Shown one piece after another: positions 1 to 16,688 of a DNA stretch of 61,350 nucleotides. The first letter of the stretch is position 1. Every line of letters starts with the position of its first letter. The translations under genes were made by a program, and so were the position numbers. The stretch comes from Candidatus Moraniibacteriota bacterium (GTDB lineage Bacteria > Patescibacteriota > Minisyncoccia > Moranbacterales > UBA1568). The stretch covers positions 1 to 61,350 of the forward strand of contig JBAXOD010000005.1 of assembly GCA_037133435.1 (NCBI GenBank). Direction: 5' to 3'. The notes beneath the pieces were generated by a model. It ran no database searches. It saw nothing but the letters and a program-made list of their open reading frames with translations, and was not told the origin of the DNA.

Positions 1-178
1 GATGGTTAGAGATGAACCAGTGTACCCCGTTGCGTTAGAAGTTGGAAACCGCCTACAAAAACCCGCCATGCCCAGAGGGCCAGGACGGGTGGTTTTAGTA
101 CTTCGAATATCGCACATGAAATGCGCCCTGTCAATATTCTTAAAAACGCCGATGAGAACCCATTTCTGAAGCCGTTGC

Positions 179-208
179 GTCTGCCTTCGAAGGCCTTCGG
201 CGCGACAA
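179..208. repeat. 30-bp palindromic insert (CGCCGAAG...CGAAGG family) inside the wzt P-loop codons
   Basis: It encodes LVAPKAFEGR between GIIG and RNG. GTC occurs at both 179-181 and 209-211 (possible target duplication). It resembles the element at 50275-50302. Confidence 0.75.
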
Positions 209-241
209 GTCCGATGATGCCGAAAAATTCCCCTTTCTTCA

Positions 242-349
242 CCCGTCCGCAGCGATACGCCAAGCGTTTCGGGCGGGCCCGTCCGCAGCGATACGCCAAG
301 CATTTCGGGCAGGCCCGTCCGCAGCGATACGCCAAGCGTTTCGGGCGGG
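242..349. repeat. Three tandem 36-bp hairpin units inserted in-frame in wzt
   Basis: Units of CCCGTCCGCAGCGATACGCCAAGC(G/A)TTTCGGGC(G/A)GG lie at 242-277, 278-313 and 314-349. Each has 8-bp terminal inverted repeats. Confidence 0.95.
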
Positions 350-881
350 CCTCGAAGGAGACGTCGTCGAGCGCCTTGAATTCCTCGAACGTCCGTTTAC
401 CGTTCAAGGCCGACGTGAACGCACCCCGAATCGAAGACACCTTCTCGTGAAATATCCGGAAGGTCTTGGAGACGTTTTTAACGCTGATGGCGATATCTTT
501 GTCCATTGCTGTATTCTAGCCTATTTATAAGCAACTTTCTAGTATTGACAAAAAAGTCGGAATCGGTGAAAATTGGATATGACTTTCCGACTATCCTATT
601 TCTTTTCGGCACGAAGAAAATGGGGCCACTCCGGAAGGCTCGGGAGTGATTATCCTCATCTTCCGACGAACGCGGACACGATACCGCGTGATGTGCCGGC
701 CGTTTGGACCCCGATCGGGATAGGATCGCCAAGCGGTTCTACACGACAAAAAGGACCCTGCCTAGGCTTTGCCTTTGTGGGGGCCTTTTCTTTTATCCTT
801 CTGCAACGTACAATGAAATTGTAAAAGTTAGTCGAACACCGACCGTATGGCGGGTCGTCCGGATTTCCGGACTAGGCTATT

Positions 882-1623: not shown

Positions 1624-2280
1624 CTATGACGTTGTTTTGGCGGACACAAAATCGGTTACCAACCGTACAAAAAAACTTTCAATCTCCGTTTGCGCGATTT
1701 CTTCGTCGATCCAGTCCACTTCAAACACTCCGAGATCGGCAAAGTATACCAGCTGTTGCAAAAAAAGTTTTTCGTCGAAGTTTCCCCCGAATCGTCGCTT
1801 CGTTTCCGACAGCATGTCTTCGAACTTCAGACCGTTCTTGAGCAGAAAGAAAACATCCACGTAGTCCCGCCACACCCCCCTGCGACCGATCGCATATGCC
1901 TTGTTGGATCCCAGGTCCTGCAGATCGAAAAGTTTCATCGTTTCATCGCCGACACGATCATGCAGGGCGGGAAAGGGGAAATAAATGAAAGAAAGTTTGA
2001 TTTCATCGTCCAAAATCACGCTGAGCTCGTCTGCGGTATCGACGACCGGACGGACCTGATAGGCGGAAAAAAGACTATTGATCTTGTTCAACAGTTTTTT
2101 GGAAACGGGATCAGCCAGAAAAAAATCGAAATCATAAGACTTTCGATGCCGTAGCTGAAGCGCGATCGCCGTTCCTCCGCCCAAAACGAAATTCGGGAAG
2201 TTTTTTTCCAAAAGGGCGAAGACGACTTGCCTTTTTTCATCCAAGATTTCTTTGTGAAACTGTGAGATATCGTTGTTCAT
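1624..2280 (-). CDS. Nucleotidyltransferase, AbiEii/AbiGii-type toxin family
   Basis: FVLGGGTAIALQLRHRKSYDFDFF (GGTA plus DxD motif) and C-terminal KAYAIGRRGVWRDYVD. Confidence 0.9.
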   Translation of the reverse strand: MNNDISQFHKEILDEKRQVVFALLEKNFPNFVLGGGTAIALQLRHRKSYDFDFFLADPVSKKLLNKINSLFSAYQVRPVVDTADELSVILDDEIKLSFIYFPFPALHDRVGDETMKLFDLQDLGSNKAYAIGRRGVWRDYVDVFFLLKNGLKFEDMLSETKRRFGGNFDEKLFLQQLVYFADLGVFEVDWIDEEIAQTEIESFFVRLVTDFVSAKTTS

Positions 2281-2548
2281 CGATTTTATTCGTATCGCCC
2301 AGATTAAGAATGATCTTGACCACGAAATTCAAAGCCTCCGGAGAATATATTTTTTGCGGATGCCCGAGGAAAACACGTTCCAAAACCTCCGAAGCATAGT
2401 GACTCTTCAGCCACGCGATATCTTCCATCGAACCATACCGCAATACCTGGTTGATAATATATTCTTTGTCACGTTCAAAATCAAGAGTTCGTGCGTCTCT
2501 TGACCAAAGAATCCCCTGCATTTTCCTCTGTTTTTCCGCGTGTTCCAT
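2237..2548 (-). CDS. DUF6922-like small protein, putative antitoxin
   Basis: ILWSRDARTLDFERDKEYIINQVLRYGSMEDIAWL. It overlaps the toxin start. The ATG at 2548 lies 6 nt after an extended -10 (TGGTATACT). The longer listed ORF (to 3022) is read-through of repeats. Confidence 0.8.
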   Translation of the reverse strand: MEHAEKQRKMQGILWSRDARTLDFERDKEYIINQVLRYGSMEDIAWLKSHYASEVLERVFLGHPQKIYSPEALNFVVKIILNLGDTNKIDEQRYLTVSQRNLG

Positions 2549-2599
2549 ACTGCAAGTATACCATATCGGGTATAAAAAACAAGAGGAAAATAGAACTTG

Positions 2600-3200
2600 G
2601 GACGAGGTCGGTCCATCCCTTGACTGCTCCCCTGACTGTCTCCCTGCCTGTCTCCGCGAGGATGTACTCATCCGTGGCGGTCCATCCCCTGTCTGAATTT
2701 CTCTCGTTCGTCTCCGCGAGGCCCTGCGTGGCGGTCCATCTCCTGTCTGAATTTCCCTTGCCTGTCTCCGCGAGGATGTACCCATCCGTGGCGGTCCATG
2801 TCTTATCATCTCATTCTGGATTGCCACCCCGGCATACGCGGGGCAGGCTGGTCGTGGACTCCCTCGCACCCGCCTGCAACGCTGTGTAGCAATGCGGGCA
2901 GGCCCGCCTGACAACGATAGCATTTCGGGCAGGCCCGCCTGACAACACTCTTTGTGTAGCAATGCGGGCAGGCCCGCCTGCAACGATAGCATTTCGGGCA
3001 GGCCCGCCTGCAACGATAGCATTTCGGGCAGGCCCGCCTAACAACACTCTTTGTGTAGCAGCGCGGGCTGGAAGACCGAGGAAGGGTCCAGGAACTGGAT
3101 TGCCGCGGTCGCGGACTCCCTCGCAAAGACCGAAGAGGCCCTTCTCCTTTCCGCTTACCTCCCTGACTGTCTCCGCGAGGCCCTGCGTGGCGGTCCATCC
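2600..3200. repeat. Mosaic palindromic repeat array upstream of the toxin-antitoxin pair
   Basis: Four more GTCTCCGCGAG...GTGGCGGTCCA copies (2650, 2710, 2764, 3169), two CTGGATTGCC host repeats (2816, 3095) and a six-unit hairpin array at 2869-3071. Confidence 0.95.
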
Positions 3201-3258
3201 CCTGTCTGTTTCCTGCCCTTCGCAAAGGGCGGGGAAGAAAAGACCGAGAGATGCGGTT

Positions 3259-3696
3259 TTATGCCGATTTTGCTTTCCGCTTCGAATCCAAAAAAAGTTT
3301 GGCAAGGCTAACCGGAACAAACAGCACACTCATCGCAAGCGAAACCGATTCCTTGGTCGGACCCAGATTAAGAATATATCCGGCATGCTCCGGAGTAAGC
3401 ATGATAAGCACGACCGTGATTCCGAACCACACCAAAGCGAACCAAGCCCATCTACGAAACACATTATCACGAACGAAAAAGAGGAATGGAAAAACAACAA
3501 GAAGAGAAAAAGACAGAAACAATAATGGTTTGCCAATAGTTAGAGCACTTTTATCTAGACACCCACTATATGAATCAGTCCAATATATGTGATCACACAT
3601 ACCAAATATTTCTTGGTTCCTGAGAATGTATGAGACTCCCATGCCAATGCCGATAATTGCAAAAATCAAAATCCTCCACCAATATGTCTTTTTCAT
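3259..3696 (-). CDS. Small multi-pass membrane protein, paralog 3
   Basis: About four hydrophobic segments. Shares PFLFFVRD..F..W..F...WF and PTKESVS..MSVLF.PVSL with the two neighbours. Confidence 0.85.
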   Translation of the reverse strand: MKKTYWWRILIFAIIGIGMGVSYILRNQEIFGMCDHIYWTDSYSGCLDKSALTIGKPLLFLSFSLLVVFPFLFFVRDNVFRRWAWFALVWFGITVVLIMLTPEHAGYILNLGPTKESVSLAMSVLFVPVSLAKLFLDSKRKAKSA

Positions 3697-3770
3697 AACA
3701 ATTTCATCCTATCTGTTCTGATAAGGCTTTACTCTAGGCCATATATCACGAACATAATCCAACTATATTC

Positions 3771-4154
3771 CTATTCGACACTCCGCTTCGAGTCCCAGAG
3801 AAGCCAGACGAGACTGACAGGAAGAAAAAGAACACTCATCGTAAATGAGACCGACTCCTTTGTTGGGTTCATCATACTAAATATTCCGCCACCGTATTTC
3901 GGGGCAAGTGCAATAACGAATATCGTGAATCCAAACCAGATACCAGCGAATTGCATCCACTTAAGAAAAACCGTATCACGAACGAAGAAAAGAAATGGGG
4001 AAATAAATATAAGGGAAGCGGCAATAAATGCGAATGGTTTCGTATATGCATTATAGAAACCAAGATTATCAAAATTCACTGCAAGATACCAATATATCGC
4101 AACAATTAATCCGATACATATCACTCCCAGTCTCCACCAATATGTCTTTTTCAT
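3771..4154 (-). CDS. Small multi-pass membrane protein, paralog 2
   Basis: Same MKKTYWWR start as paralog 3. The upstream extension to 4202 is doubtful because its homologous copy before paralog 3 contains stop codons. Confidence 0.85.
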   Translation of the reverse strand: MKKTYWWRLGVICIGLIVAIYWYLAVNFDNLGFYNAYTKPFAFIAASLIFISPFLFFVRDTVFLKWMQFAGIWFGFTIFVIALAPKYGGGIFSMMNPTKESVSFTMSVLFLPVSLVWLLWDSKRSVE

Positions 4155-4230
4155 AACAACTTTAAATCCTATCTGTTCTGATAAGGCTTTGCTCTCGGCC
4201 ATATATCAAGAACATAACCCAACTATATTT

Positions 4231-4629
4231 CTATTCCACTTTCCGCTTCGAGTCCCAGAGAAGCCAGACGAGACTTACCGGAAGGAAAAGGGCACTCATC
4301 GTAAGTGAAATAGGTTTCTTCGTCATACCCAAAGCTAAAATATTGTTCGAATATTCCGGAGTAATCATAATAAATAGAATCGTAGACAGAAACCAAATAC
4401 CGGTAAATCTCAACCATTTAAGAAAAACTGCATCGCAAACGAAAAAGAGGAACGACGCGACGGACAAAAAAGCGAGTGATAAGTGAAATACGGTTCTCGT
4501 AAACAAGATACTATTTCCATAGAGACATTTTTGCACACTACCATCACAGGACCACAGATATGAAAAAATAACTATCGCTAATGCGAGAACTGTTAATATT
4601 ATCTTTTTCCAGTAGTTAGAAATCATCAT
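4231..4629 (-). CDS. Small multi-pass membrane protein, paralog 1
   Basis: The C-terminus MSALFLPVSLVWLLWDSKRKVE is nearly identical to that of paralog 2. Confidence 0.85.
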   Translation of the reverse strand: MMISNYWKKIILTVLALAIVIFSYLWSCDGSVQKCLYGNSILFTRTVFHLSLAFLSVASFLFFVCDAVFLKWLRFTGIWFLSTILFIMITPEYSNNILALGMTKKPISLTMSALFLPVSLVWLLWDSKRKVE

Positions 4630-4655
4630 AATATTATTGCTTTATTTTATTGACT

Positions 4656-7600
4656 TCACAAAATTTGAAAAGGGTACCATAAGCCGATTCCACAATTTTC
4701 TGAACCCCATATGGATAATATCATATTCAGAGGAAGAAATGGACTGGAAAACAGTACTCGGGTTATGGTTCGAATGATCGAAAAGAACCATGCGAGCGGA
4801 CTGTCTCCGATTTCAGGCGACGCGATATCCTGATTTATCATAGTGTCGCCACTTGGCAAAACAGCAGTATCATTGGTTGAATCCGAGGATGCCTCCGTTC
4901 CAAAAATACCCTTTCTAAGACTCTCGAGCGTGGCCGTAATACCCGTTTTATCGTGTTTCTGTGAATCCTTCGAGCCCGAAGAAGATCCGGAGGAATCCGA
5001 GGTTGAATCTGTCATCTCGTTTGCCACAACCACTTCCGGAGGTGCGACCAGAGTAGCCGTCCCGTTCATCACGGGAGCGACTTCGTATTCCCCTCCCGGC
5101 TCATTCCCGTTCAGGTCCGCCTTGAGCGTCGACAGGTGCCCCAGGCCTTCCTTGGGTACGGTAAGCGAGACCGTCGTCGTGGCAGTCACCGGCAGATCCT
5201 CGAATACCGTATGATTCACCGTCTTTTCTCCGGTCTTCGTCACGGCTACTTCCTCGAATTTCAGCGTATACGAGCCGTTGTCGTACCCGTCCAACTGAAT
5301 ATCCATTTTTGTCCCCTCGGGAAAGGAAACATATTTTCGCTCTCCGAATTGATAGTATGTGCTTCCCGGAATACCCTCCTCGATAGTCGTAAGGGTCTGT
5401 CCATCCTCCTTAGCTTCTTTCGGGCCCGTGTGATTTCCAGACGAATCGGTCACCGAGACGTCTAGAGGAGAATAGAGCGCCATACGGATGCGCGGCTTCG
5501 CATCTTTGCAATCGGACGGCCGAGAAGTCTGAATATAGTTTGGTAAATCTTTGTCGTTTTCCTTATGATCAATAATCTGTCCTAAAAAATTCAGCAATGG
5601 CTCAGCTTCTAGAAGATTCGCATGGCTACTATTAGTAGAGCTTCTATCATTGTAATTATACAAATCTACCCAATATTTCTTCACATTCGATGACGCCGAA
5701 AGCATGAGCGCGCTCGGAGCAGTTACGACCTTGTCTCCGTCCACGGTAAATTTCGGTTCATATACCGGTTCATATTCGTTTTCTGACTCGACACACGACG
5801 GAATGATTCCTCCCGCTACTGGATAACAACGGTGTTGTTTCGCTTCCGTGTAATCGACCCCGCTGACGGTATCGAGTCCCCATCCGGCGATCTGTATCGC
5901 CTCCACACCCGATGGCGGCGTCCAACGATCAAGTTCGTCCTGCGTATCTTCCGCCTGACTCAGCAGATGTTTATTCAAGACGTTCTCTTTATCAGCAGAT
6001 GTTTTTGCAGGTTTATCCCGACCATCTTTCTCGGCCGTAAGGAAGTCATCGAGCACACTACGAGAATCGACTGTGGGCCCGTAGGCGTCCAGGAAGGCCG
6101 AGCTTCGGGTGTTTTTCGACGAGAACGTGATAAGCGGATCTTCCGTCCGGTCGAAATATTTTGCCGAAGGAAGGAATCCGTATGCTCCCGGCATATTCTC
6201 GGCCAACGAACGGATATCCCCATCCGATCCGAGCAAACCCCAAAACAGATTTTCCTTGTACCCATAGAGGAGCGTGAGCATGGAAATCGGCGCGCCCATC
6301 TGCGGCGTCCCGACGAACACGACCCGATCCACCAGATTCGCTTCACCATTACTTTCCATACGTTTCAAGAGTTCCTTTGCAACCAACCCGCCGTTTGAGT
6401 GCGCGATAATCGTCACCTTCCCGGTCTTCGATGACTGTGCGAGGGTATGAAGCTGGTCCGACAGTGACACGTGGTCGTTGTGATACGGCGTGAATCCATA
6501 TGCCACGTCCTCGACGTTCATCCGCCAATCATAAGCGAATGGGACAAAGTCGTTGATAATATGAGCGTCTTTCTTGGCTTTGAGATCGGCGAGGAAAGAC
6601 TTATAAATCTTGTCCGATCCGGCAGTTTCCAGTACGTCCTTGGTATAGATATCGTTCACGCTCTTTCCATTCTCGTCGAGCGCAAGATGATCCAGATCTT
6701 TACTGAAAAAATTCGGCGGCCACAAAGTATCTTCGCTTCCGATACCATCATCCATATACAGCCGGCTCCCTTTGGCTCCCGGCAAAAAAAGCACGTTGGA
6801 CGCGCAGGTGTGGCACACGGCGAAGAGTTCCGTCTCGCTGAAGCCGTCGAGTTTCGCCGGACCTTCGATCGATTTGGAATTCCGATCCCCGTCATTATGA
6901 TCGGCATGCGGTCCCTTCGCGGAGCCGTACCAGTCGTTCGTGAGCGTGACCATCTCGCGGCAATTCGCCGGATCCTGGCAGGCGCTCGTCCCGGACATGA
7001 ACGCCGGGACACCCGAGCGACCCTTGAAATCCGATCCGGATACGGAAAACTCGGACAGTCCCCGCGCGATCCCCTGCTCGGTATCGCGGTCTCCGGTATC
7101 CAAAGGATCGGTCATCCAGATATCCGCGCCTCCGCTTCCGAAAAAAATGGAGTCGGCGATCCGGACCTTTCCATAAATGAACGTGACCGCGGACTCGGCT
7201 TGCCAGTATTCTTCCGCATGCGCGATGTTTGTGAACAGGTCGCGGAACGGCAGGAAGACCTGGTACACCTGATTGACTTTCTCCCCGCCGCGCTCTATGC
7301 GGACATGCTTGAAATCCGAGACGTGGACCTCGCTTTCCGATCCGAACACGGACCGGTCCAAAAAGCGGATCATGAAGACGGTCTCATCGTTTGCCTTCGA
7401 AAAAACGACCGGGTTTTCCTCGGTGCCGATCGCGTCCACCGTTCCCTCGTTGATATCGAAATATATCGGACCCGACTCCTCGTAGTCGCCGGAAAAGATA
7501 ATTTTCGCTCCAGGCTCGATGGTCAGCTTCGCCCCGTCCGTGATGGCTACGGACTCATCGAATTCGTGCTCAGAGCCGGCTTTCCAGGTCGTATCCTCGT

Positions 7601-7733
7601 CTATGGTCGTCCCATAGCTGTTTTCCGCGCGTACGGGCTGTGACAGTGCCCCACGTTGCCACATAAGCACGGCGGCCGCCAGAAGAACGACCGCGAAAAC
7701 CGATATGAACACCGCCTTTTTTCGAAAAATCAT
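4656..7733 (-). CDS. Large secreted or membrane-anchored alpha/beta-hydrolase (LCAT/PGAP1-like lipase) with an N-terminal beta-helix-like region
   Basis: N-terminal signal peptide (RKK plus hydrophobic stretch), LTIEPGAKIIF repeat-like segment, oxyanion-hole motif VLFLPGAKGSRL, FAYDWR, nucleophile elbow IIAHSNGG, VFVGTPQMG, and a hydrophobic C-terminus. Confidence 0.85.
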   Translation of the reverse strand: MIFRKKAVFISVFAVVLLAAAVLMWQRGALSQPVRAENSYGTTIDEDTTWKAGSEHEFDESVAITDGAKLTIEPGAKIIFSGDYEESGPIYFDINEGTVDAIGTEENPVVFSKANDETVFMIRFLDRSVFGSESEVHVSDFKHVRIERGGEKVNQVYQVFLPFRDLFTNIAHAEEYWQAESAVTFIYGKVRIADSIFFGSGGADIWMTDPLDTGDRDTEQGIARGLSEFSVSGSDFKGRSGVPAFMSGTSACQDPANCREMVTLTNDWYGSAKGPHADHNDGDRNSKSIEGPAKLDGFSETELFAVCHTCASNVLFLPGAKGSRLYMDDGIGSEDTLWPPNFFSKDLDHLALDENGKSVNDIYTKDVLETAGSDKIYKSFLADLKAKKDAHIINDFVPFAYDWRMNVEDVAYGFTPYHNDHVSLSDQLHTLAQSSKTGKVTIIAHSNGGLVAKELLKRMESNGEANLVDRVVFVGTPQMGAPISMLTLLYGYKENLFWGLLGSDGDIRSLAENMPGAYGFLPSAKYFDRTEDPLITFSSKNTRSSAFLDAYGPTVDSRSVLDDFLTAEKDGRDKPAKTSADKENVLNKHLLSQAEDTQDELDRWTPPSGVEAIQIAGWGLDTVSGVDYTEAKQHRCYPVAGGIIPSCVESENEYEPVYEPKFTVDGDKVVTAPSALMLSASSNVKKYWVDLYNYNDRSSTNSSHANLLEAEPLLNFLGQIIDHKENDKDLPNYIQTSRPSDCKDAKPRIRMALYSPLDVSVTDSSGNHTGPKEAKEDGQTLTTIEEGIPGSTYYQFGERKYVSFPEGTKMDIQLDGYDNGSYTLKFEEVAVTKTGEKTVNHTVFEDLPVTATTTVSLTVPKEGLGHLSTLKADLNGNEPGGEYEVAPVMNGTATLVAPPEVVVANEMTDSTSDSSGSSSGSKDSQKHDKTGITATLESLRKGIFGTEASSDSTNDTAVLPSGDTMINQDIASPEIGDSPLAWFFSIIRTITRVLFSSPFLPLNMILSIWGSENCGIGLWYPFQIL

Positions 7734-7844
7734 ACGACAGAACACGAATGATTATGACCCTTCATAATACACATTTCGCGCTTTTTGGCAAGCCCCATGG
7801 GCAAGAGACTCATTCTTGAGTGGTTCCTTCCGCTTTTTCCATTC

Positions 7845-8150
7845 CATTTGAGAATTTTAAATTGCCTGTTCACTGTTATCTGCTCACTGATTCCGTTCCC
7901 AACCCGTTACCTATTCTGTTGTCAGTTGTGAGTTATCAGTTGTTTGTTTCCCTTGCCACCCCGTAACCTTGGCGCAGGCTGGGTTCTATTAAAAAAATTA
8001 CAAAATGTAAAAATTAAAAATTGTCTTTGTTCTCTGTTCCAGTTTCGAAATTCGAAATTCAATCCGCCAGCTGGCGGACAAAATTGCTCTTAGTTCCATG
8101 CTCACTGATTCTGTTCCCAACCCGTTAACCCGTGAACTCGTTAACCGAAC
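7845..8150. repeat. Intergenic concatemer of 7-9-mer periodic tracts and short palindromes
   Basis: CTCACTGATT.(C/T)GTTCCCAACCCGTTA twice (cores at 7895 and 8113), GTTGTCAGTTGTGAGTT, AAAAATTACAAAAT...AAAAATTGTC, TTCGAAA repeats, and the palindromes at 7955-7983 and 8062-8078. Confidence 0.8.
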
Positions 8151-8224
8151 AACTCCCTCTTCTTTAAAAAAACAGCCCGCATCAATGTATTGATACGGAC
8201 CCCTCGTTCGAAAAACGAGACCTT

Positions 8225-8842
8225 CTATCCCGAAACGAGTGCGATGTTACGCATCAGGAACATGCCGAATTTCTGTCTGAGAATTTCTTCCCACTGCAGC
8301 CGCGACTCTTGGGTACTTCCCGATCCCCGACGGAACAATACGTCAAGAAAGTCGATTCCATCGGTTCGCGGATTTCGATGGATTTCCTCGACAGCGGAAA
8401 TATCAATGAGCGAAAGACCGATCTTAGTGTTATACGGAACGGATTCGATCCGCTTCGCCCTGGAACTGGCCGCGACACATAGATGTAGCGAACAGATTTT
8501 TCCCGAAATCGCATGGAGGAAATCCTCGGCGGCATGTGGGGAACCCTTCAGTACGGAATACACCGTTCCCTCGCATACGACGACGGCCCCGGCGCCGAGC
8601 GAGACCTTCGATTCGTTCTTACTGCTCGGCAGCTTCGCAAGCTCGTGCACGGTACGTGTCGCCATGTTTTCGGCAAGCGTGCGGCCGTATCGCCATTCTT
8701 TCATCGATCCGATTTGGACCGTCGGCTCGATATCGATATGGTCATCCACCGGCGATAATTCCGTCAGACCGAGGACGCGCCTGAACAGATCGTGCATGTC
8801 GGCGAAATGGATCTTTTCTTGCAGATTCTTCATATTCTTCAT
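8225..8842 (-). CDS. Divergent Maf-like (ITPase fold) protein 1
   Basis: LGAGAVVVCEG...HAAEDFLHAISGKICSLHLCVAA aligns by eye with Maf IGADTMVCLDG...EEAASMLRRLSGRSHSVITAVSI. SD-like GGGAG upstream and its own promoter. Confidence 0.6.
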   Translation of the reverse strand: MKNMKNLQEKIHFADMHDLFRRVLGLTELSPVDDHIDIEPTVQIGSMKEWRYGRTLAENMATRTVHELAKLPSSKNESKVSLGAGAVVVCEGTVYSVLKGSPHAAEDFLHAISGKICSLHLCVAASSRAKRIESVPYNTKIGLSLIDISAVEEIHRNPRTDGIDFLDVLFRRGSGSTQESRLQWEEILRQKFGMFLMRNIALVSG

Positions 8843-8897
8843 ACCGTTTACTCCCGTCTAATGGTTGCGTGACTTCTTGGTAAAAAACAGCCGATGT

Positions 8898-8926
8898 ATC
8901 CTATCGTATTGGAAAGACCCTGTCAA
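8898..8926 (-). promoter_or_regulatory. sigma70 promoter of Maf-like 1
   Basis: TTGACA-N17-TAGGAT. Confidence 0.75.
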
Positions 8927-8953
8927 AGCGACGGGCGTTTCTTGGGAGGCTAT

Positions 8954-8982
8954 TTGACGCAATCGCATCGAACCGGTATGAT
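8954..8982 (+). promoter_or_regulatory. sigma70 promoter of the divergent orphan gene
   Basis: TTGACG-N17-TATGAT. Confidence 0.75.
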
Positions 8983-9042
8983 ATGGCATTCTTTAACAAA
9001 AAGGCGTCTGGCAGATTCATCAAAAAAAATTGGAGGTTAGGG

Positions 9043-9723
9043 ATGGGCAATAAAAAGATTTTCTCACTCGACCCGAGAACGTTTACGGATAAGACTTTCT
9101 GGGGATATCGGGATCCCGCTCTTCTCATCGAACGTCGAATCGATGAAAAAGAAGACGGGCTGGTCCCGGGCGATCTCGTTCTCTCGCCCATGGTCCGAGG
9201 CGGGAACAGGAAACGGGTACCCATGTCGGTATCATTCCAGCATGATCCGTTCGTCGACGGACCGTCTGTCCGAACTCCGATCCTTCCGCCCGGACACAGG
9301 ATATCCGGATCGCTCGGAAGCGCGTTCCATGGGATCATCGAGTCGGTGGTCGTCCCCGGCCGGGATATGAGACATCCGGGAAAACCCGTTCCCATAAGTC
9401 TCGTGCTCATGAATGCGGAACCGGTCGAGACACGCCACGCATACCTGTACTTCCGGACCGGCAACGGAGTCATCGTGGAATCGAACAAGATCATTCACGA
9501 TCATTCCGTCCTTACGACTCTCTACCGGGATTTTCACTCCAGTGCCATCCCGAAAAAAGATTTTTTCGCGCTTCCGTTTCTCCCGAAGAAGGAAAGGGAA
9601 CAGTACATCCCGAAAGAACACCGGGACGATTGGAACAGAGGATATAGGCCGATGGATCCGAAAACCAGAAGTCGACTGCTCGATCAGGTCCGAAGAACGA
9701 CCGCGTGCTCCCGATCGATCTGA
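9043..9723 (+). CDS. Hypothetical protein (226 aa)
   Basis: GGAGGT SD 5 nt before the ATG at 9043. The listed start at 8983 abuts the -10 box. A terminator lies downstream. Confidence 0.75.
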   Translation: MGNKKIFSLDPRTFTDKTFWGYRDPALLIERRIDEKEDGLVPGDLVLSPMVRGGNRKRVPMSVSFQHDPFVDGPSVRTPILPPGHRISGSLGSAFHGIIESVVVPGRDMRHPGKPVPISLVLMNAEPVETRHAYLYFRTGNGVIVESNKIIHDHSVLTTLYRDFHSSAIPKKDFFALPFLPKKEREQYIPKEHRDDWNRGYRPMDPKTRSRLLDQVRRTTACSRSI

Positions 9724-9732
9724 ATCGCAGAT

Positions 9733-9775
9733 AAAAAAATAACAAGACTGTACAGTGTACAGTCTTGTTTTTTAT
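9733..9775. terminator. Bidirectional intrinsic terminator
   Basis: Perfect inverted repeat AACAAGACTGTACA-G-TGTACAGTCTTGTT with A/T tracts, between convergent genes. Confidence 0.85.
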
Positions 9776-9797
9776 TGACCGATACTCGGACTTCGGA

Positions 9798-10463
9798 CTA
9801 TCGAATAACTCTTTCCTTCACGCTTTCGACATCCGGCAGTTTTTGATTCGGAGCGATCAGACATCCGATTTCGTCCATTTTGCGTAGCCTCTCCAGAATT
9901 CTTGCGCAAATGAGTTCGACGTCGTCCTCCGGAGATTCGAGCAGTTCCGAAAAATATCCGGAAAACGGCTCCGACGGTCCGGATATCGCAAGTTCGGACT
10001 TCACAATCGAAATACTATCGATATCCGTTTCCAACATCACACGAACACAGAGCTCCTCCGAAAAAGTCTCGGGAGCGTTCATATTCCCGTTTGAACACAA
10101 AGCCATACCAACGACAAGATGATAATCGTCCCCGGCAAAGACATTCAGAAACCGCTGCAAATCAACAATCGTAGCGAGATCGATGATCTTCTTTTCTGTT
10201 ATATCCGTCGCTACGAACGATACACCGATTATGACGGATGTCGGCGGATGGTTATTTTCCTCGGCAAGTACGGCTTCTTCGGCGAGTCGCTGCGCTTTTT
10301 CACATGGCTTGGTAGCCGGATCGAAACGAATGATTGATGTGCCGGCTGGAACGAAATGAGCGGAAACTCTAAAAAACTTTTTCAACACTTCAAGAACACA
10401 TTCTGTTCCCTTTGTTCCGACCAAGACAACTTCCCGGACTACTGGCGTTAAAGTCATAGTCAA
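9798..10463 (-). CDS. Divergent Maf-like protein 2
   Basis: PCEKAQRLAEEAVLAEENNHPPTSVIIGVSFV resembles Maf [37 protein letters not shown] SD upstream. Confidence 0.55.
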   Translation of the reverse strand: MTMTLTPVVREVVLVGTKGTECVLEVLKKFFRVSAHFVPAGTSIIRFDPATKPCEKAQRLAEEAVLAEENNHPPTSVIIGVSFVATDITEKKIIDLATIVDLQRFLNVFAGDDYHLVVGMALCSNGNMNAPETFSEELCVRVMLETDIDSISIVKSELAISGPSEPFSGYFSELLESPEDDVELICARILERLRKMDEIGCLIAPNQKLPDVESVKERVIR

Positions 10464-10508
10464 TTCCTCCGTCTAAGTGAAAAAAAATTGTTCAACAACT
10501 GTGCCCGG

Positions 10509-10537
10509 ATAATAGCAGAATACAGCCACTCTGTCAA
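10509..10537 (-). promoter_or_regulatory. sigma70 promoter of Maf-like 2
   Basis: TTGACA-N17-TATTAT. Confidence 0.8.
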
Positions 10538-10708
10538 TCCTAACGGGCAACGAAAGGGACGGCTCACGCAAATAAGAAAAAATAATACGAGAGTTTACGA
10601 ACGCGTTGTCGTAACGGCATTCGGGACGAAATACAGAAAAGGGACCGTAAGATAATCGAAAAGGCTCATCGTTCGACGAGCCTTTCGGTTTTTATGAGAA
10701 AAGAGCCT

Positions 10709-11506
10709 TTAAGCGTTTACACCGACCTTATGTTCCGCATTCCACGCGGCCTGCCAAGCGCTTGGGGCATTTGGATCGACATGTTCAACGGCAAAATACC
10801 GCAGAGCGCGTTTTTGTGGAATATCCGCACCTTTCCTTTTCACATGATCCACAGTCGTACCGACCGGGTGCTTCATGGCGATATTCATTGATTTCTCGAT
10901 CACATTCCCTTTTCCCGTTCTCATCAATACGGCAAGTCCGTTGATCATCCTGAGCAATGCTTCACCTAGAGAACGGTTCAAAGACTCATGATCCCGGATA
11001 TAACATTCCGGATGGGTCGTATACGGATTCACCGGTCTGATGGCCGGTTGATCTGACATTTTTTTCCATACCATCTGCCGTATTCTCGTCTGGTCCGAAA
11101 TCGTGTCATATGGTCCGATCTTTGCCGTATCACTGTATATCTTGCCGTTATTGGATAAACAGACTCCGAGCCAAAAGCTCACGGAATGGTCACGCATATC
11201 CGGAGGATTCCACGCTTTTTCATTCGACAGGATTGACCCGTCGCTGAGTTCGGCAATCAGCATGACCCCGATAATCAGACTTTCCGGACTTTCGGTATCG
11301 ATATATTCGATGGCCTTGCGTAGAGCGCCCTGTTCCGCGAGAATCTGCGGCGAAAGCTTACGTTTCGCGCCGATATTCGTAAAGCGCGCGGTATTCACGC
11401 TCCGTGTCCTGATATTCGGATCAAATCCGAAATTTTGTAAAACGGGTGAAATCCGGGACAGTTGGGAATCGGTGAACCCGTAAAATCCGGCCATGATAGT
11501 CGGCAT
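10709..11506 (-). CDS. Divergent Maf-like protein 3
   Basis: SPQILAEQGALRKAIEYIDTESPESLIIGVMLIAELSDGSIL and GVCLSNNG parallel Maf and paralog 2. AAGGAG SD upstream. Confidence 0.5.
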   Translation of the reverse strand: MPTIMAGFYGFTDSQLSRISPVLQNFGFDPNIRTRSVNTARFTNIGAKRKLSPQILAEQGALRKAIEYIDTESPESLIIGVMLIAELSDGSILSNEKAWNPPDMRDHSVSFWLGVCLSNNGKIYSDTAKIGPYDTISDQTRIRQMVWKKMSDQPAIRPVNPYTTHPECYIRDHESLNRSLGEALLRMINGLAVLMRTGKGNVIEKSMNIAMKHPVGTTVDHVKRKGADIPQKRALRYFAVEHVDPNAPSAWQAAWNAEHKVGVNA

Positions 11507-11555
11507 AGTAAACTCCTTTATTTATATTTTTAAAATACGCACACGATACTCGGAA

Positions 11556-11584
11556 ACCTTATCCGATTTTCACGGAATAGTCAA
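11556..11584 (-). promoter_or_regulatory. sigma70 promoter of Maf-like 3
   Basis: TTGACT-N17-TAAGGT. Confidence 0.65.
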
Positions 11585-11701
11585 TGCGTGTGCAGAACCC
11601 GGTGTCCAGTTTCGTTCATAACTCCGTTCGCTCAAATTCCGAAGTTCCTGAAAAAAAATATCGACGGGTAAGCTTTCTCGCTTACCCGCCGACAAACACC
11701 G

Positions 11702-12382
11702 TCACGATCCCGAATTTGCCAGGAGACTTTTTCGGGAAGATGCCTTCGGAGCGGACAAGAATTCCTCGATGGCAAGCCCGACAAGACCAAAAAACCGGCC
11801 ACGTTCTTCCTCGACATCGGTAATGATCTGAGAACAGATCGGGTTCGTCAACGGGCGATTGCCCGGAGAAGCCGCCCGCGCTCCCAATGCGCCGATACCA
11901 TAGGTCAGAGTCCGGATAGCCTTTTCGGTCAGGGATTCGACATGCAATCCTATCGCGCGTTGACCCGTACCACGTTCGATAAAAATACCATTGACGAGCT
12001 TTCCATACGTCATTTCCACATGGTAGGTGAACGCTCCGCCAGCCGCCAACGCCCGATAGACGCGTGCCAACTCGGCTTCATTCATACACATCGGTATTTC
12101 CTTTCCGTCTTGTGTATGCGCCAACGCTATCGAATGGAAACCCACCACATCGAACCCTTCGAACCGGCGGATATCCTCGATGCTTTTCGCCTTCAATCGG
12201 GAAAGCTCCTGTGCAGCCTCACATGGATGATGCGGAAGATGTAGAATCTCTTCCGGATAGATTTCTTTTAGGAACCCGTTGTTCCAACCTTCCGGCACTA
12301 TCGGATCGAAGCCTCTCGCTATGAGGGCTTCCCTGAAAATCGACGCTTTCCCCGCGCCTGGCACGATGATTTTTTTCAACAT
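11702..12382 (-). CDS. Divergent Maf-like protein 4
   Basis: PCEAAQELSRLKAKSIED, SLTEKAIRT and GRFFGLVGLAI resemble Maf [27 protein letters not shown] and GDYYSVMGLPI. Start moved to MLKKII, downstream of the promoter. Confidence 0.65.
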   Translation of the reverse strand: MLKKIIVPGAGKASIFREALIARGFDPIVPEGWNNGFLKEIYPEEILHLPHHPCEAAQELSRLKAKSIEDIRRFEGFDVVGFHSIALAHTQDGKEIPMCMNEAELARVYRALAAGGAFTYHVEMTYGKLVNGIFIERGTGQRAIGLHVESLTEKAIRTLTYGIGALGARAASPGNRPLTNPICSQIITDVEEERGRFFGLVGLAIEEFLSAPKASSRKSLLANSGS

Positions 12383-12432
12383 TCGATTCCTTGATTTTTT
12401 GTTAAATAAAAATTGCCGTAAACGACCAAAAG

Positions 12433-12461
12433 AGGATACCAAACGGGTACCTTTTCGTCAA
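12433..12461 (-). promoter_or_regulatory. sigma70 promoter of Maf-like 4
   Basis: TTGACG-N17-TATCCT. Confidence 0.65.
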
Positions 12462-14001: not shown

Positions 14002-14535
14002 TCATTCTTCCCGTCGGAATACCCGCAAGATACCGAAGGCGAGGACCGATCCGCCGAGCGCGGTCGCGAGCTGCAACCAGCCGAACATCGCAAGCACCGT
14101 GGAAAAGAGCGCGGAACCGGAAAACAGGGTCGTCGCGGATATGATCCCGACGACGGCCAGGAACACGAACTTGAGCAGGCTCCCAAGCGCGGCGGAAAGC
14201 GCGAAGTTCCCGTATTTCCGGAAGGTGAAGTGAACGGTCGCGATGAGGATGATATTGCCCGCAACGATGAACGGGATCAGCGGGATGAACGGCGTCGGCA
14301 GCTGCCCGCGAAACGCCGCGACGATGCTCGGCAGAACGGCGACGAGGAGCGCTTCGGCGCTCACGCCGAAATACATCGCGGCCAAAACAAGCGCCATGTT
14401 CACGAATACCCCGGTTATCGGTTGCGCGAAAAACAAGGGAGACACGACGACGGTCCCGACCAGAAGCACCGTCTTCAGGAGAACGGCTGTGCGATCGTTC
14501 CCGATTTCCGCGACCGCGGTTTTTTCAGAGTTCAT
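14002..14535 (-). CDS. Membrane protein resembling an ECF transporter S-component
   Basis: About five transmembrane segments and QPITGVFVNMALVLA. It overlaps the hydrogenase stop codon. Confidence 0.6.
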   Translation of the reverse strand: MNSEKTAVAEIGNDRTAVLLKTVLLVGTVVVSPLFFAQPITGVFVNMALVLAAMYFGVSAEALLVAVLPSIVAAFRGQLPTPFIPLIPFIVAGNIILIATVHFTFRKYGNFALSAALGSLLKFVFLAVVGIISATTLFSGSALFSTVLAMFGWLQLATALGGSVLAFGILRVFRREE

Positions 14536-16267
14536 AGGGTTCCTTTGAATTCTTAAGCTTTTTCACGATTCTCCGACGCTTCTTCGAGTACGAGGTATGG
14601 AGGATCTTTTTCCGCGTCTCCTCGTCGGCAAGGTGATCCCGGTAGATGTCCGCGACAGCTTTATTCTCGTGCGCCCGCCGCATCGTCTTGTCCCGGTCTA
14701 TGTCATAGAGCGCCTGTGCCCGTTTCCATATCGCTTCCTTGGAAGAGGGTATCGGCTGCCCGCCGCCGCCCACACATCCGCCCGGGCACGTCATGACCTC
14801 CACCGCGTCATACGCCTGCGGGTTTTCCCGGAGCTCATCGAGGATCATTCTCGCGTTGTGGAGCCCGCTCACCACGGCGAGCCGCACCGTTTTGCCGTTG
14901 ATGTCGATCTCTTTTCGTTTGATGCCCTCGTGCCCGCGGATTTCCCGGACCGCCCCGTCGGGAATATTCTCCCCCGTCGCGCGGAAATACGCGGTCCGGA
15001 GCGCGGACTCGAACACCCCGCCGGAAGAGCCGTAAATCACTCCGGCGCCCGACGGGTCACCGAGCGGATCGTCGGCCGGCTCCGGGTCGAGACGCCCCAG
15101 ATCGATGCCGCGTTTCTTGAACAGCCGGGCAAGCTCGCGCGTCGTGAGCACCCGGTCCACCGGGAAGAGCCCGTCGATCTTCAGTTCCTCGCGTCGCACC
15201 TCGTATTTCTTGGAAACGCACGGCATGATCGACACGACGACGATGTCTTCCGCTTTGCGACCGATGCGTTCCGGCAGGATATGTTTCACGATGCCGCCGA
15301 GCATGATCTGCGGCGAACGCGACGTCGCGAGATTGGGCAGGAATTCCGGATAGAAGAACTCGACGAACCGGACCCACGACGGGCAGCACGACGTCATCGC
15401 CGGAAGGTTCTCGCCGCTTGCGAGCCGCTCCAGGAGTTCCCCCGCCTCCTCTATGGTGGTGAAGTCCGCGGCGGATGCGGTATCGAAAACGTGATGAAAC
15501 CCGAGCGCGCGAAGCCCCGCCGAAAGCTTGTCCGTGACGATCTCACCGGGACGATATCCGAATTCTTCGCCGATGCTCGTCCGGATGGACGGAGCGAACT
15601 GCGCGACCATCACCTTGCTCCCGTCCTCGAACAGTCGCTCGAGCTCCTCGAATTCCCCCACGCCCTCGATAGCGCCCACCGGGCAATGGATGACGCACTG
15701 CGCGCAATTGATACATTCCTTACTCTTGTCGTCGGTGAGTCGCATCTTGCCGTCCTCGCGCATCTCGAGATATCCCGTCGGACAGACCAGGGTGCAGTTG
15801 CCGCATCCGATGCATTTCGTCTGGTCGAAGACGATCGCGCCCGACTGGAGGATCTCGTCTTGTTCGCGACGGATCGCGGACGGCTTCGCTTGGTATTCCC
15901 TGACCAGTTCGAGCAGATGACACTTCTGCAAGAATACGCAATCGTCGCATTCCAACAGATGATGCCCCAAAATGGAATCAAGGTTCTTCTTTCGTTCTTC
16001 GATGAGCGCCAGGGACTCGGTCGTGATGTCCATCCCCTCTTCGGCGATCGTCGCGCAGGCCCGAACGGTATCCTGGCGACCCGCGACCGAAACGACACAC
16101 ATGCCGCACGTGCCCGACGGCGGCAGATCCGGATGATTGCACAATGTCGGAATCGCGACTCCGAATCGCTTCGCGGCCTCAAGAATGGTCGTGCCCTGCT
16201 CGGTCACGACCTGTCGCCCGTTTATGGTGAAAGTGACGGTTTCCATGTGTCTTTGTTTCAACTCCAT
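14525..16267 (-). CDS. hydA: Monomeric group A [FeFe]-hydrogenase (2Fe-2S, His/Cys 4Fe-4S, 2x4Fe-4S and H-cluster domains)
   Basis: H-cluster motifs TSCCPSW, MPCVSKKYE and EVMTCPGGCVGGGGQP. Accessory cluster motifs CxxCxxCxxxCP (twice), HxxECDDC and IPTLCNH. The listed extension to 16621 is probably non-coding. Confidence 0.93.
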   Translation of the reverse strand: MELKQRHMETVTFTINGRQVVTEQGTTILEAAKRFGVAIPTLCNHPDLPPSGTCGMCVVSVAGRQDTVRACATIAEEGMDITTESLALIEERKKNLDSILGHHLLECDDCVFLQKCHLLELVREYQAKPSAIRREQDEILQSGAIVFDQTKCIGCGNCTLVCPTGYLEMREDGKMRLTDDKSKECINCAQCVIHCPVGAIEGVGEFEELERLFEDGSKVMVAQFAPSIRTSIGEEFGYRPGEIVTDKLSAGLRALGFHHVFDTASAADFTTIEEAGELLERLASGENLPAMTSCCPSWVRFVEFFYPEFLPNLATSRSPQIMLGGIVKHILPERIGRKAEDIVVVSIMPCVSKKYEVRREELKIDGLFPVDRVLTTRELARLFKKRGIDLGRLDPEPADDPLGDPSGAGVIYGSSGGVFESALRTAYFRATGENIPDGAVREIRGHEGIKRKEIDINGKTVRLAVVSGLHNARMILDELRENPQAYDAVEVMTCPGGCVGGGGQPIPSSKEAIWKRAQALYDIDRDKTMRRAHENKAVADIYRDHLADEETRKKILHTSYSKKRRRIVKKLKNSKEPYEL

Positions 16268-16355
16268 TGTACTCCGGCGACCAGGCGAGGTAAAGCATAT
16301 ATTCGAGAATAAGGAAATGTCGGGAAGAGATCGACAAAAAACCGGCACCGTGATT

Positions 16356-16688
16356 TCACGATGCCGCTCCGACCGATTTTGATTTTCTGCGTTTCGCAAG
16401 CCGATATGTCTTCTCAAGAGAGATACTCTCTGAACCCTTGAGAGTTTCCGGAAACAGGAGCTGAAGTGCCCGCACCCGTTTAACGGAAGAGGCATACTGA
16501 CGTCTGATACCCGCAAGACAATGATGCGAATGGTCCGGGATGGCACAATGCCCGATTTCTCCCGAAAACATACACCGACTCTTCCATCCCCGCATGGCGA
16601 CCCGTTCTTCCATCTCGGCAAAAAGCCAGTTGCGATGCTTCAGCGCCACGATAAGCTCATGCTTCCCTTGTTCCGATATCTGTCCCAT
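16356..16688 (-). CDS. Hypothetical 110-aa protein with a Cys/His cluster
   Basis: ATG preceded by GGGGG. Contains CMFSGEIGHCAIPDHSHHC. Co-oriented with hydA. Confidence 0.45.
   Translation of the reverse strand: MGQISEQGKHELIVALKHRNWLFAEMEERVAMRGWKSRCMFSGEIGHCAIPDHSHHCLAGIRRQYASSVKRVRALQLLFPETLKGSESISLEKTYRLAKRRKSKSVGAAS

Follow-up and report, generated by a model that had tools for sequence, protein, structure and literature searches.

A polymorphic LCAT/LPLA2-like enzyme and its linked four-helix membrane partner in Parcubacteria-type Patescibacteria: a candidate effector-immunity pair

Lipase-immunity pairs are already known from several bacterial settings. Some loci of the Tle effectors, which are associated with the type VI secretion system (T6SS), carry tandem immunity paralogs, and the immunity proteins of pore-forming colicins are small inner-membrane proteins with three to four transmembrane (TM) helices. 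The phospholipase A toxin TslA, which relies on type VII secretion (T7SS) in S. aureus, is accompanied by variable-copy surface TilA immunity proteins in a monoderm membrane (PMC10730906), and the tandem immunity paralogues EsaG and TipC recombine at conserved sequence blocks (PMC9484751). Here, we describe a related arrangement in a 61,350-nucleotide stretch (hereafter the window) of contig JBAXOD010000005.1, assembly GCA_037133435.1, from a Candidatus Moraniibacteriota bacterium. According to its list of open reading frames (ORFs), a gene for a putatively exported hydrolase of the LCAT/LPLA2 type is followed on the minus strand by three co-oriented genes for small membrane proteins (P1, P2, and P3). 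More than 100 further loci carry the gene pair (about 120 from genomes and metagenomes), a recurrence well beyond chance, and in these a loop beside the catalytic His of the enzyme co-varies with the first loop (loop 1) of the partner. Judging from these sequence patterns, we think it reasonably probable that the module is an effector-immunity pair, polymorphic and matched in specificity, with additional immunity types, in which inhibition and antagonism are inferred. What would be new here is a lipase-immunity-like module that is polymorphic and Sec-dependent and has a polytopic partner.

A large part of bacterial diversity belongs to Patescibacteria. Members of this group, also called the Candidate Phyla Radiation (CPR), reportedly do not synthesise lipids and have membranes rich in lysolipids (PMC7242380), and secreted phospholipases were proposed as a route of lipid acquisition (PMC8080830). 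The searched literature on lipases, phospholipases, and LCAT in Patescibacteria/CPR holds general proposals only, among them that CPR bacteria obtain lipids by scavenging, and no conserved gene system is named there.

Linkage and co-variation of the enzyme and its partner

Linkage of the two genes is strict. In all seven contexts seeded on the small protein, an LCAT-family gene encoding 996-1195 aa lies directly upstream, and the surrounding genes are mutually unrelated, being housekeeping genes in most. A scan of species-representative genomes seeded on LCAT revealed relatives in at least 563 of them, all named ones belonging to Parcubacteria-type Patescibacteria. Among the 80 loci retained for inspection, in 67 the next gene downstream, on the same strand, belongs to the small family, ten stop at or within the LCAT gene, and the remaining three carry a divergent multi-TM ORF of 98-147 aa in the partner position. 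The metagenome scan, seeded on the small protein, placed an LCAT ORF directly upstream in 31 of the 34 loci with upstream DNA and farther upstream in the other three. A small-family gene without an LCAT gene was never found among the genome and metagenome loci examined. The distance from the LCAT stop to the partner start is mostly -4 to +30 nt, and the genes often overlap; modules contain mostly one partner copy, sometimes two, three, or four, and some genomes contain two complete modules (L050; L040 and L049 of one metagenome-assembled genome, MAG). The original prediction, made from the window alone, had proposed an effector-immunity layout, and had held that paralogs occurring independently of lipases would speak against it. 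These counts do not refute it: the small genes never stand apart from the hydrolase gene, and the copy number ranges from one to four.

Several further observations concern the distribution of the module. The two LCAT and partner modules of L050 stand in tandem (2247-9812), and a second, degenerate LCAT-like paralog, with the beta-helix kept and a weak hydrolase match, is present in L018 (2080-5400) and L135 (1476-4310). A number of MAGs with the module (L020, L024, L034, L038, L047, L058, L070, and others) are titled 'uncultured Bdellovibrionales', 'Micavibrio', or 'Candidatus Saccharibacteria', which probably reflects misassigned taxonomy and not real occurrences beyond the Parcubacteria-type group. 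Viral contigs yielded no relative of the enzyme or of the partner, and a phage origin was rejected on this ground.

Replacement of a cassette within the partner gene is directly visible in closely related loci. In the pairs L024/L021, L001/L014, and L029/L031, whose LCAT proteins are 91%, 80%, and 86% identical, respectively, helices 2-4 of the partner are 85-100% identical, while helix 1 and loop 1 share only ~20% and differ in length. At the DNA level, identity in close pairs falls from ~90-100% to 25-60% across ~150-180 nt at the partner cassette and then recovers. The loop-1 classes are discrete, recur in distant lineages, and are too divergent to be aligned with one another: class A (GxCDxxYxxxxYxGCLD), class C (PCDxxxxxxCLGGNS), class D (YxCFxxxxxCxFD), class E (FYPYKxGxC...C), class F (ELxxCxxxxxCxFxY), and a further group of Cys-free forms. 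A diversity-generating retroelement was set aside as the source of this variation, since the cassettes differ in length and have unrelated sequences, unlike the products of adenine-specific mutagenesis. In multi-copy arrays, the C-terminal halves are homogenised within a genome (82% identity in L046, 87% in L043, 73-81% in L058, and 66% in L017) and the loops are unrelated.

The phylogeny of the whole LCAT protein does not follow the loop-1 class, and each of four LCAT sister pairs is divided between a class D partner loop and one of a second type, typed as class F. This rejection of a simple tracking of LCAT phylogeny by loop 1 at first seemed to argue against immunity, until fine mapping confined the co-variation to a patch at the pre-His loop. 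The clearest case is L002 versus L094, in which only 40 of 1043 LCAT residues differ; 28 of the 40 cluster within a single 75-residue segment that surrounds the catalytic His, and the first 550 residues are free of differences. Between such near-identical strains, with an LCAT core identity of 98% and a flanking DNA identity of 100%, only two patches are replaced. The DNA of L002 and L094 is 100% identical over 2 kb except in exactly two troughs ~850 nt apart, at the LCAT His region and at the partner cassette, separated by DNA that is 93-100% identical. The two-patch pattern repeats in L024/L021, L001/L014, and L029/L031. Within the enzyme, one variable element is a loop bounded by the conserved KKYWVDL and by the catalytic His (YASKKS versus WTYGKKQIVGKT, for example), and the other comprises ~40 residues past the His, up to RIRM.

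The co-variation is also observed systematically. Among 11 close pairs with an LCAT core identity >=0.74, the partner loop is swapped in nine, and the pre-His loop is swapped in all nine; the partner loop is unchanged in the other two, as is the pre-His loop, leaving no discordant pair. Pairing of motif classes was examined across 51 non-redundant modules: the pre-His form SNK(I/L)FT is found with partner class D (5/5), NKGxxIDR with class F (5/5), and xxYND with class C (five cases, plus four more missed by the regular expression); short pre-His forms go mostly with class A, and xSYD(D/T) goes with class E. The same class pairings reappear between lineages that share no more than 40-45% identity in the LCAT core. 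When LCAT core identity was controlled for in a partial Mantel test, the correlation was r = 0.22, and none of 5000 permutations reached a value as high; among 85 LCAT windows, the one at residue 696 showed the strongest co-variation with the partner loop.

The window itself follows these pairings. Its pre-His loop YNYNDRSSTNSS is of the xxYND form, and the adjoining P1 is of class C, the usual partner of that form (loop 1 of P1 is 65% identical to that of L058_1); hence P1 would be the cognate of the window enzyme, and P2 and P3 would be extra, non-cognate types. The nearest loop type to the Cys-free loop of P2 is P0006. Both P0006 and the LCAT protein P0072 (pre-His loop WDYSKKHVFNLN) lie on 6427-bp contigs, presumably one and the same. 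Class A, the type of P3, stands alone beside short-loop enzymes, for example in L001, L002, and L007. In general, arrays of two to four copies hold differing loop classes, which elsewhere are the sole partners of other LCAT variants. Modules of different classes are also found in L013 and L016, whose bins share the isolate-name prefix MJ130702B, which is consistent with co-occurring classes if the bins come from one sample. According to the alignment, P1-P3 represent three old classes (C, Cys-free, and A), and as these recur in other lineages, they are therefore not the outcome of recent local diversification. The original prediction had called them diversifying paralogs; the concentration of variability in the loop agrees with this, and a recent local diversification is not borne out.

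Anatomy of the two proteins and of the locus

Read from a GTG, the enzyme ORF spans 4656-7745 and encodes 1029 aa; read from the ATG at 7733, it encodes 1025 aa. Residues 401-712 match the Pfam family PF02450 (LCAT) with an E-value of 6.4e-14 and 52.4 bits against a cutoff of 21, and the homologues bear the same assignment. Across 75 aligned homologues, Ser446, Asp667 (in DGD), and His704 never vary. Translation places Ser446 within the AHSNG of the nucleophile elbow IIAHSNGGL (6384-6410), and Asp667 and His704 are predicted to be catalytic by analogy. An AlphaFold2 (AF2) model built from the alignment of these homologues has a mean predicted local distance difference test score (pLDDT) of 83. 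In a Foldseek search of the PDB, its best match is lysosomal phospholipase A2 (4x92; E-value 4.5e-11; template modelling score, TM-score, 0.70 over the whole target), and the top 11 matches are all LPLA2 and LCAT, with target-normalised TM-scores of 0.61-0.72. Tle4 of the Tle4-Tli4 complex is a weaker match (E-value 1.8e-7; TM-score 0.36), and the lipase-foldase complex 2es4 is among the weak ones. The sequence profile reached the beta-helix alginate lyase 7o84 (E-value 0.0013) and Tle4 (E-value 0.0047), and no other. Because the hidden Markov model (HMM) match, the invariant triad, and the fold match agree, the enzyme is assigned as a putative exported LPLA2/LCAT-fold acyl hydrolase or transferase, for which activity on phospholipids is suggested by family and fold.

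The N-terminal segment resembles a signal peptide (MIFRKKAVFISVFAVVLLAAAVLMWQRGALSQPVRA, followed by E after the putative cleavage site) and is modelled as a helix at residues 3-30; comparison of N-termini revealed cleavable-Sec-like segments with AXA-type sites throughout the enzyme family. The following beta-helix region, which is assigned to Beta_helix, NosD, or Beta_helix_4 of Pfam in homologues, is a probable glycan-binding or adhesin-like module. At the other end of the protein, the type of C-terminal tail varies among the homologues whose C-termini were compared.

The partner is modelled by AF2 as a four-helix bundle (pLDDT 86) with helices at residues 6-27, 42-61, 66-89, and 104-130. 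Positively charged segments of the inner side are the N-terminal MKKTYWWR, the turn FFVRDxVFLKWLRF, and the K/R of the C-terminus. On the positive-inside rule, an N-in/C-in topology is predicted, in which the variable Cys-pair loop and a second, more conserved loop (PxYxGG...PTKE) would face the outside of the cell. No match above threshold was obtained for the small proteins in Pfam or NCBIfam, from which the family is absent and where it is undescribed, and a fold search against the PDB returned nothing significant (best E-value 1.1). A profile search yielded 65 small-protein clusters at 90% identity with E-values down to 1e-59, and an exhaustive HMM search yielded 1285 representatives at 50% identity, nearly all of 120-150 aa. 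Fused tandem duplicates of 265-294 aa with two profile matches each are also found (P0201, P0220, P0310, P0317), as are homologues of 244-316 aa with extra C-terminal TM helices (L053_1, L061_1, L088_1). A search for Rosetta-stone fusions among the longer homologues (L053, L061) gave additional TM helices only and no Pfam domain.

In the window, P1, P2, and P3 share 42-46% identity, with the C-terminal two-thirds conserved and loop 1 variable; P1 and P3 have a Cys pair in loop 1, and P2 does not. A longer reading of P2, a 143-aa ORF that starts at 4202, is judged probably spurious from the stop in the homologous spacer ahead of P3. The junctions between the paralogs are duplicated over ~190 nt, which comprise the 3' end of one paralog, a spacer of 74-76 nt, and the first codons of the next paralog: 3706-3863 and 4166-4323 are 87% identical over 158 nt, and 3674-3704 and 4132-4162 are 97% identical. 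These blocks are a likely recombination anchor. In the source-lake metagenomes, Logan unitigs end at the junction repeats, and no population variants of the paralog array were seen there, contigs merely breaking at the repeats; the contig sequence was recovered identically from two runs. A promoter-like site precedes the enzyme gene (7791-7764), and no convincing terminator was found between the four genes; for both reasons, an operon appears plausible. The positions of all features are collected in Table 1.

The composition of the locus differs from that of its surroundings. P1-P3 are AT-rich, with a GC content of 0.38-0.41 and a third-codon-position GC content (GC3) of 0.41-0.43, in comparison with a GC3 of 0.72-0.84 for the housekeeping genes of the window. 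Along the enzyme gene, GC3 forms a mosaic: it is 0.7-0.8 over the first 300 codons, drops to 0.38-0.50 across codons 570-750, and stands at 0.45 in the tail; the trough of 0.38-0.50 coincides with the polymorphic patch. Because the GC3 of the small genes and of enzyme segments departs from that of the housekeeping genes, this composition points to imported DNA. The observations of the original prediction hold in every detail; it had reported an exported hydrolase with an AHSNG elbow ahead of three co-oriented AT-rich small genes, conserved C-terminal parts with variable N-terminal loops and Cys pairs in two paralogs, and duplicated junction DNA.

Other genes of the window include rpoB, rpoC, recA, ftsZ, ftsA, ftsK, hisS, comEC, a LytR-family protein, and an [FeFe] hydrogenase. 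No T6SS, T7SS, or other dedicated secretion genes are present among the larger ORFs of the window, which are housekeeping genes or have no Pfam match, in agreement with the earlier statement that T6SS genes are missing here, and no secretion-system genes appear in the gene tables or Pfam annotations of the small-protein-seeded contexts. The closest relatives of the enzyme are labelled Candidatus Moranbacteria or Moraniibacteriota (best identity 61%), and the window sequence occurs in freshwater and lake metagenomes.

Table 1. Features of the enzyme gene and the three partner paralogs in the window (minus strand marked -)
Feature	Position	Strand	Basis
Enzyme gene, 1025-aa multidomain LCAT/LPLA2-like hydrolase, predicted to be exported	4656..7733	-	ORF, Pfam PF02450, AF2, Foldseek
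Putative Sec signal peptide, residues 1-36, cleavage after VRA	7626..7733	-	K/R N-terminus, hydrophobic helix, AXA-like site
Right-handed beta-helix domain, residues ~40-300	6834..7616	-	AF2 strands 42-298
Alpha/beta-hydrolase catalytic domain, residues ~310-725	5559..6806	-	Fold match, invariant triad
Triad codons Ser446, Asp667, His704	6396-6398, 5733-5735, 5622-5624	-	Translation and alignment
Polymorphic specificity patch: pre-His loop, catalytic His, and ~43 residues to AKP	5493..5660	-	Translation and strain comparison
Pre-His loop YNYNDRSSTNSS	5625-5660	-	Translation
Beta-sandwich domain, residues ~745-895	5049..5501	-	AF2 strands 748-893, pLDDT mostly >85
Disordered Ser/Thr-rich tail with Trp-rich hydrophobic end, residues 903-1025	4659..5027	-	pLDDT <50
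P1, partner paralog, 131/132 aa, four-helix membrane protein, loop-1 class C (SCDGSVQKCLYGNSIL)	4231..4629	-	ORF, alignment, AF2
Variable helix-1/loop-1 cassette of P1	4492..4602	-	Alignments; same cassette exchanged between strains
Junction block copy 1: 3' end of P1, spacer, 5' end of P2	4132..4323		Nucleotide alignment
P2, partner paralog, 127 aa, loop 1 without Cys (NFDNLGFYNAY)	3771..4154	-	ORF, alignment
Variable cassette of P2	4035..4130	-	Alignments
Junction block copy 2: 3' end of P2, spacer, 5' end of P3	3674..3863		87-97% identical to 4132-4323
P3, partner paralog, 145 aa, loop-1 class A (GMCDHIYWTDSYSGCLD)	3259..3696	-	ORF, alignment
Variable cassette of P3	3529..3672	-	Alignments

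Some neighbouring elements deserve mention in their own right. The intergenic stretch 7870-8150, upstream of the enzyme gene, has three to five times the contig depth in the source metagenomes and several alternative joints (skips and back-joins), and is probably another repeated or variable element. Beyond it, four Pfam-less genes (8225-12442) have an intermediate GC3 of 0.49-0.63, and the left 12 kb of the window appears lower in GC and possibly imported. An otherwise minimal-looking genome segment encodes, at 14525-16621 on the minus strand, a large subunit of [FeFe] hydrogenase (698 aa) that has ferredoxin-like domains. Two GC-rich blocks (880-1560 and 2600-3230; GC 0.56-0.62) of composite short repeats bracket a DUF6922 and AbiEii toxin-antitoxin-like pair at ~1624-3022; their repeat units include GCGGGCAGGCCCGCC and GTCTCCGCGAGG...CCGTGGCGGTCCAT, each in three to nine copies. 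At 242-351, a 36-nt unit is repeated 3.1 times in frame within an ORF (6-506, minus strand) whose ends resemble an ABC-ATPase N-terminus. The short repeats suggest an element similar to repetitive extragenic palindromic sequences or miniature inverted-repeat transposable elements (REP/MITE) that inserts into genes.

Immunity and other readings of the module

The reading that we favour takes the two genes for an operon-like, two-component module that recurs across Parcubacteria-type Patescibacteria. Its first component would be a Sec-exported enzyme of ~1000 aa with phospholipase A and/or transacylase activity, yielding lysolipids from phospholipids, and its second component would be the small N-in/C-in four-helix membrane protein encoded immediately downstream. 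The first extracytoplasmic loop of the partner would bind the enzyme at the loop before the catalytic His and thereby block it at the producer's own unshielded membrane, so that the partner would be an immunity protein; in cells with no outer compartment to house a soluble inhibitor, one embedded in the membrane would plausibly be needed. The loops of enzyme and partner would come in discrete matched classes, exchanged by recombination at conserved flanking blocks, and extra partner genes of other classes would protect against the enzymes of neighbouring strains. Phospholipase activity, export, physical binding, inhibition, and inter-strain antagonism are all inferred in this scheme. Immunity is favoured because discrete alleles, replacement between near-clonal strains, flanking recombination blocks, and non-cognate arrays are traits of polymorphic toxin-immunity systems. 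In such systems generally, the immunity gene is adjacent and always linked to the toxin gene, and a toxin segment varies in step with the immunity protein; both are found here. Where the original prediction had spoken of an immunity repertoire, the variable extracytoplasmic loop does switch together with the hydrolase loop beside the catalytic His, as a specificity-matched repertoire predicts; its 'contact-dependent' mode of attack gained no support.

Several points weigh against an effector-immunity pair. Co-variation by itself shows specific coupling, which is not the same as inhibition. The matching is many-to-one with exceptions, since class A joins several pre-His forms and the matching class of L017 is encoded by the second gene of its array. 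The chi-square value for the class pairing (p ~2e-8, n = 28 classified modules) is only indicative, because the classes were set after inspection and the loci are related. In most genomes, the module stands amid housekeeping genes, and its spread over at least 563 species-representative genomes is more universal than an accessory competition system would usually show. The best-conserved residues of the partner are intramembrane or cytoplasm-facing and do not point toward the enzyme, and its extracytoplasmic loops are short (14-32 aa and about 14 aa). Two small metatranscriptomes of the source sample gave no expression signal, which is uninformative.

It is rather unlikely, in our view, that the partner is instead a membrane receptor for kin-specific docking, to which the enzyme delivers host-derived lysolipids or fatty acids for the producer membrane; the matched polymorphism would then limit delivery to kin, and extra paralogs would accept the enzymes of other strains. 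The same co-variation and a strict one-to-one linkage fit such a receptor, contact beside the active site suits product transfer, and the preservation of TM2-TM4 (85-100% identity where LCAT has 80-91%) suggests an intrinsic membrane function. The pair is also near-universal and lies amid housekeeping genes in most loci, and CPR bacteria were reported to be without lipid synthesis and enriched in lysolipids, with no responsible gene named (PMC7242380). However, there is no precedent for so small a protein as a lipid acceptor or flippase, the partner has no fold match in the PDB, and allelic classes that switch between near-clonal strains, together with non-cognate arrays, are a classic footprint of conflict that would be unusual for a metabolic hand-over. 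More improbable is a generic accessory factor, such as an anchor, a maturation helper, or a membrane stabiliser, with both loops varying under outside pressure from, for example, phages or host defences. Both patches lie exposed on the surface, variability is frequent among CPR surface proteins, and the gene order resembles that of lipase-foldase operons, for which 2es4 appeared among the weak fold matches; yet independent variation would not yield concordant switching in 11 of 11 pairs, nor would the same class pairings reappear at an LCAT core identity of 40-45%, the partner has no extracytoplasmic domain with which to chaperone a lipase, and the proteins have no relatives on viral contigs. 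We regard it as very improbable that the patches were merely replaced together through proximity, in one recombination tract or an assembly chimera. They do lie within ~1 kb, and metagenome assemblies can be chimeric at repeats, but the ~850 nt between the L002/L094 troughs are 93-100% identical, the pattern recurs in independent assemblies from different projects, and the window contig was recovered from two runs.

Loss of the enzyme with retention of the partner was also considered. The LCAT gene is broken and the partner intact in three loci: L035 has a TAG in place of a conserved Gln (2227-2229), and frameshifts in A-runs occur in L064 (~4401-4432; the same as L124) and L115 (~3478-3487); the split LCAT of L058 is a scaffold gap only. 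The reverse, a broken partner beside an intact LCAT gene, was seen in no locus among those examined. This asymmetry could be a signature of toxin loss or an assembly error, and the argument that the toxin was lost and immunity kept was dropped because the cases are few and exposed to assembly error.

On a broader and tentative proposal, the missing machine for lipid acquisition in Parcubacteria-type Patescibacteria may be this enzyme with its partner, combined with attack on other strains or with kin-restricted lipid delivery. If so, the enzyme would harvest acyl chains or lysolipids from the membranes of hosts; this would account for the lysolipid-rich membranes that have been reported, and a self/non-self recognition system would be built into a nutritional enzyme. 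The module offers a concrete, widespread, and experimentally tractable candidate for lipid handling, namely an LPLA2/LCAT-fold enzyme tied to an unannotated membrane family. Its matched, recombining polymorphism is direct sequence evidence that strains interact through the enzyme, by antagonism or by kin recognition, and the co-switching patches pinpoint candidate residues determining specificity. Should the effector-immunity reading hold, the lipase-immunity theme would extend to a Sec-dependent system without a specialised secretion machine in monoderm-like, ultra-small bacteria.

Comparison with described systems

The catalytic domain is most similar to LPLA2 (PLA2G15) and LCAT of PF02450, with which it shares the Pfam match, the superposition over a whole 375-aa structure (TM-score 0.61-0.72), and an invariant Ser-Asp-His; by analogy, a phospholipid would serve as acyl donor and a lysolipid would be released. 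Unlike these enzymes, the window enzyme is bacterial, has ~1000 aa with an N-terminal beta-helix, a C-terminal beta-sandwich, and a disordered tail, is ~16% identical to the solved LPLA2/LCAT structures, and possesses a polymorphic pre-His loop and an obligate membrane partner.

In terms of gene arrangement, Tle-Tli pairs (Tle4-Tli4, PDB 4r1d) likewise encode an alpha/beta hydrolase that attacks membrane lipids beside a protective partner, and a weak relatedness of Tle4 to the window enzyme can be detected in both structure and sequence. The original prediction had drawn its analogy from Tle-type T6SS effectors, which does not hold: the enzyme has a Sec signal in place of VgrG/PAAR delivery and a fold nearest to LPLA2, and Tli proteins are periplasmic proteins or lipoproteins, whereas the partner here is a four-helix integral membrane protein. 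No match to a Tle family (Tle1-5) was found in Pfam or NCBIfam, and membership in Tle/T6SS was rejected in view of the missing T6SS genes and the LPLA2-like fold. The LipA-Lif pair (PDB 2es4) resembles the module in that a secreted lipase gene is followed by the gene of a membrane-anchored partner; Lif, however, wraps the lipase with a large helical domain in the periplasm and has a single TM helix, whereas the window partner has four TM helices and almost no extracytoplasmic mass, and a lipase foldase was rejected for want of such a domain.

Colicin immunity proteins are similar in being small polytopic membrane proteins that give type-specific protection beside a secreted membrane-attacking protein, but the toxin there is a pore former and the genes are plasmid-borne, not chromosomal as here; no homology of the window proteins to colicin modules was detected in Pfam, NCBIfam, or the PDB fold search. 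TslA-TilA provides another parallel, that is, a phospholipase acting from outside on a monoderm membrane and a surface immunity protein of variable copy number. It differs in its T7SS with helical partner proteins and in its lipase fold context, has no sequence relationship to the module, and its TilA is a DUF576 lipoprotein, whereas the window partner is polytopic. The EsaG, TsaI, and TipC families, finally, resemble the module in their tandem immunity paralogues, which recombine at conserved blocks (PMC9484751), and the junction blocks and cassette swaps described here behave likewise.

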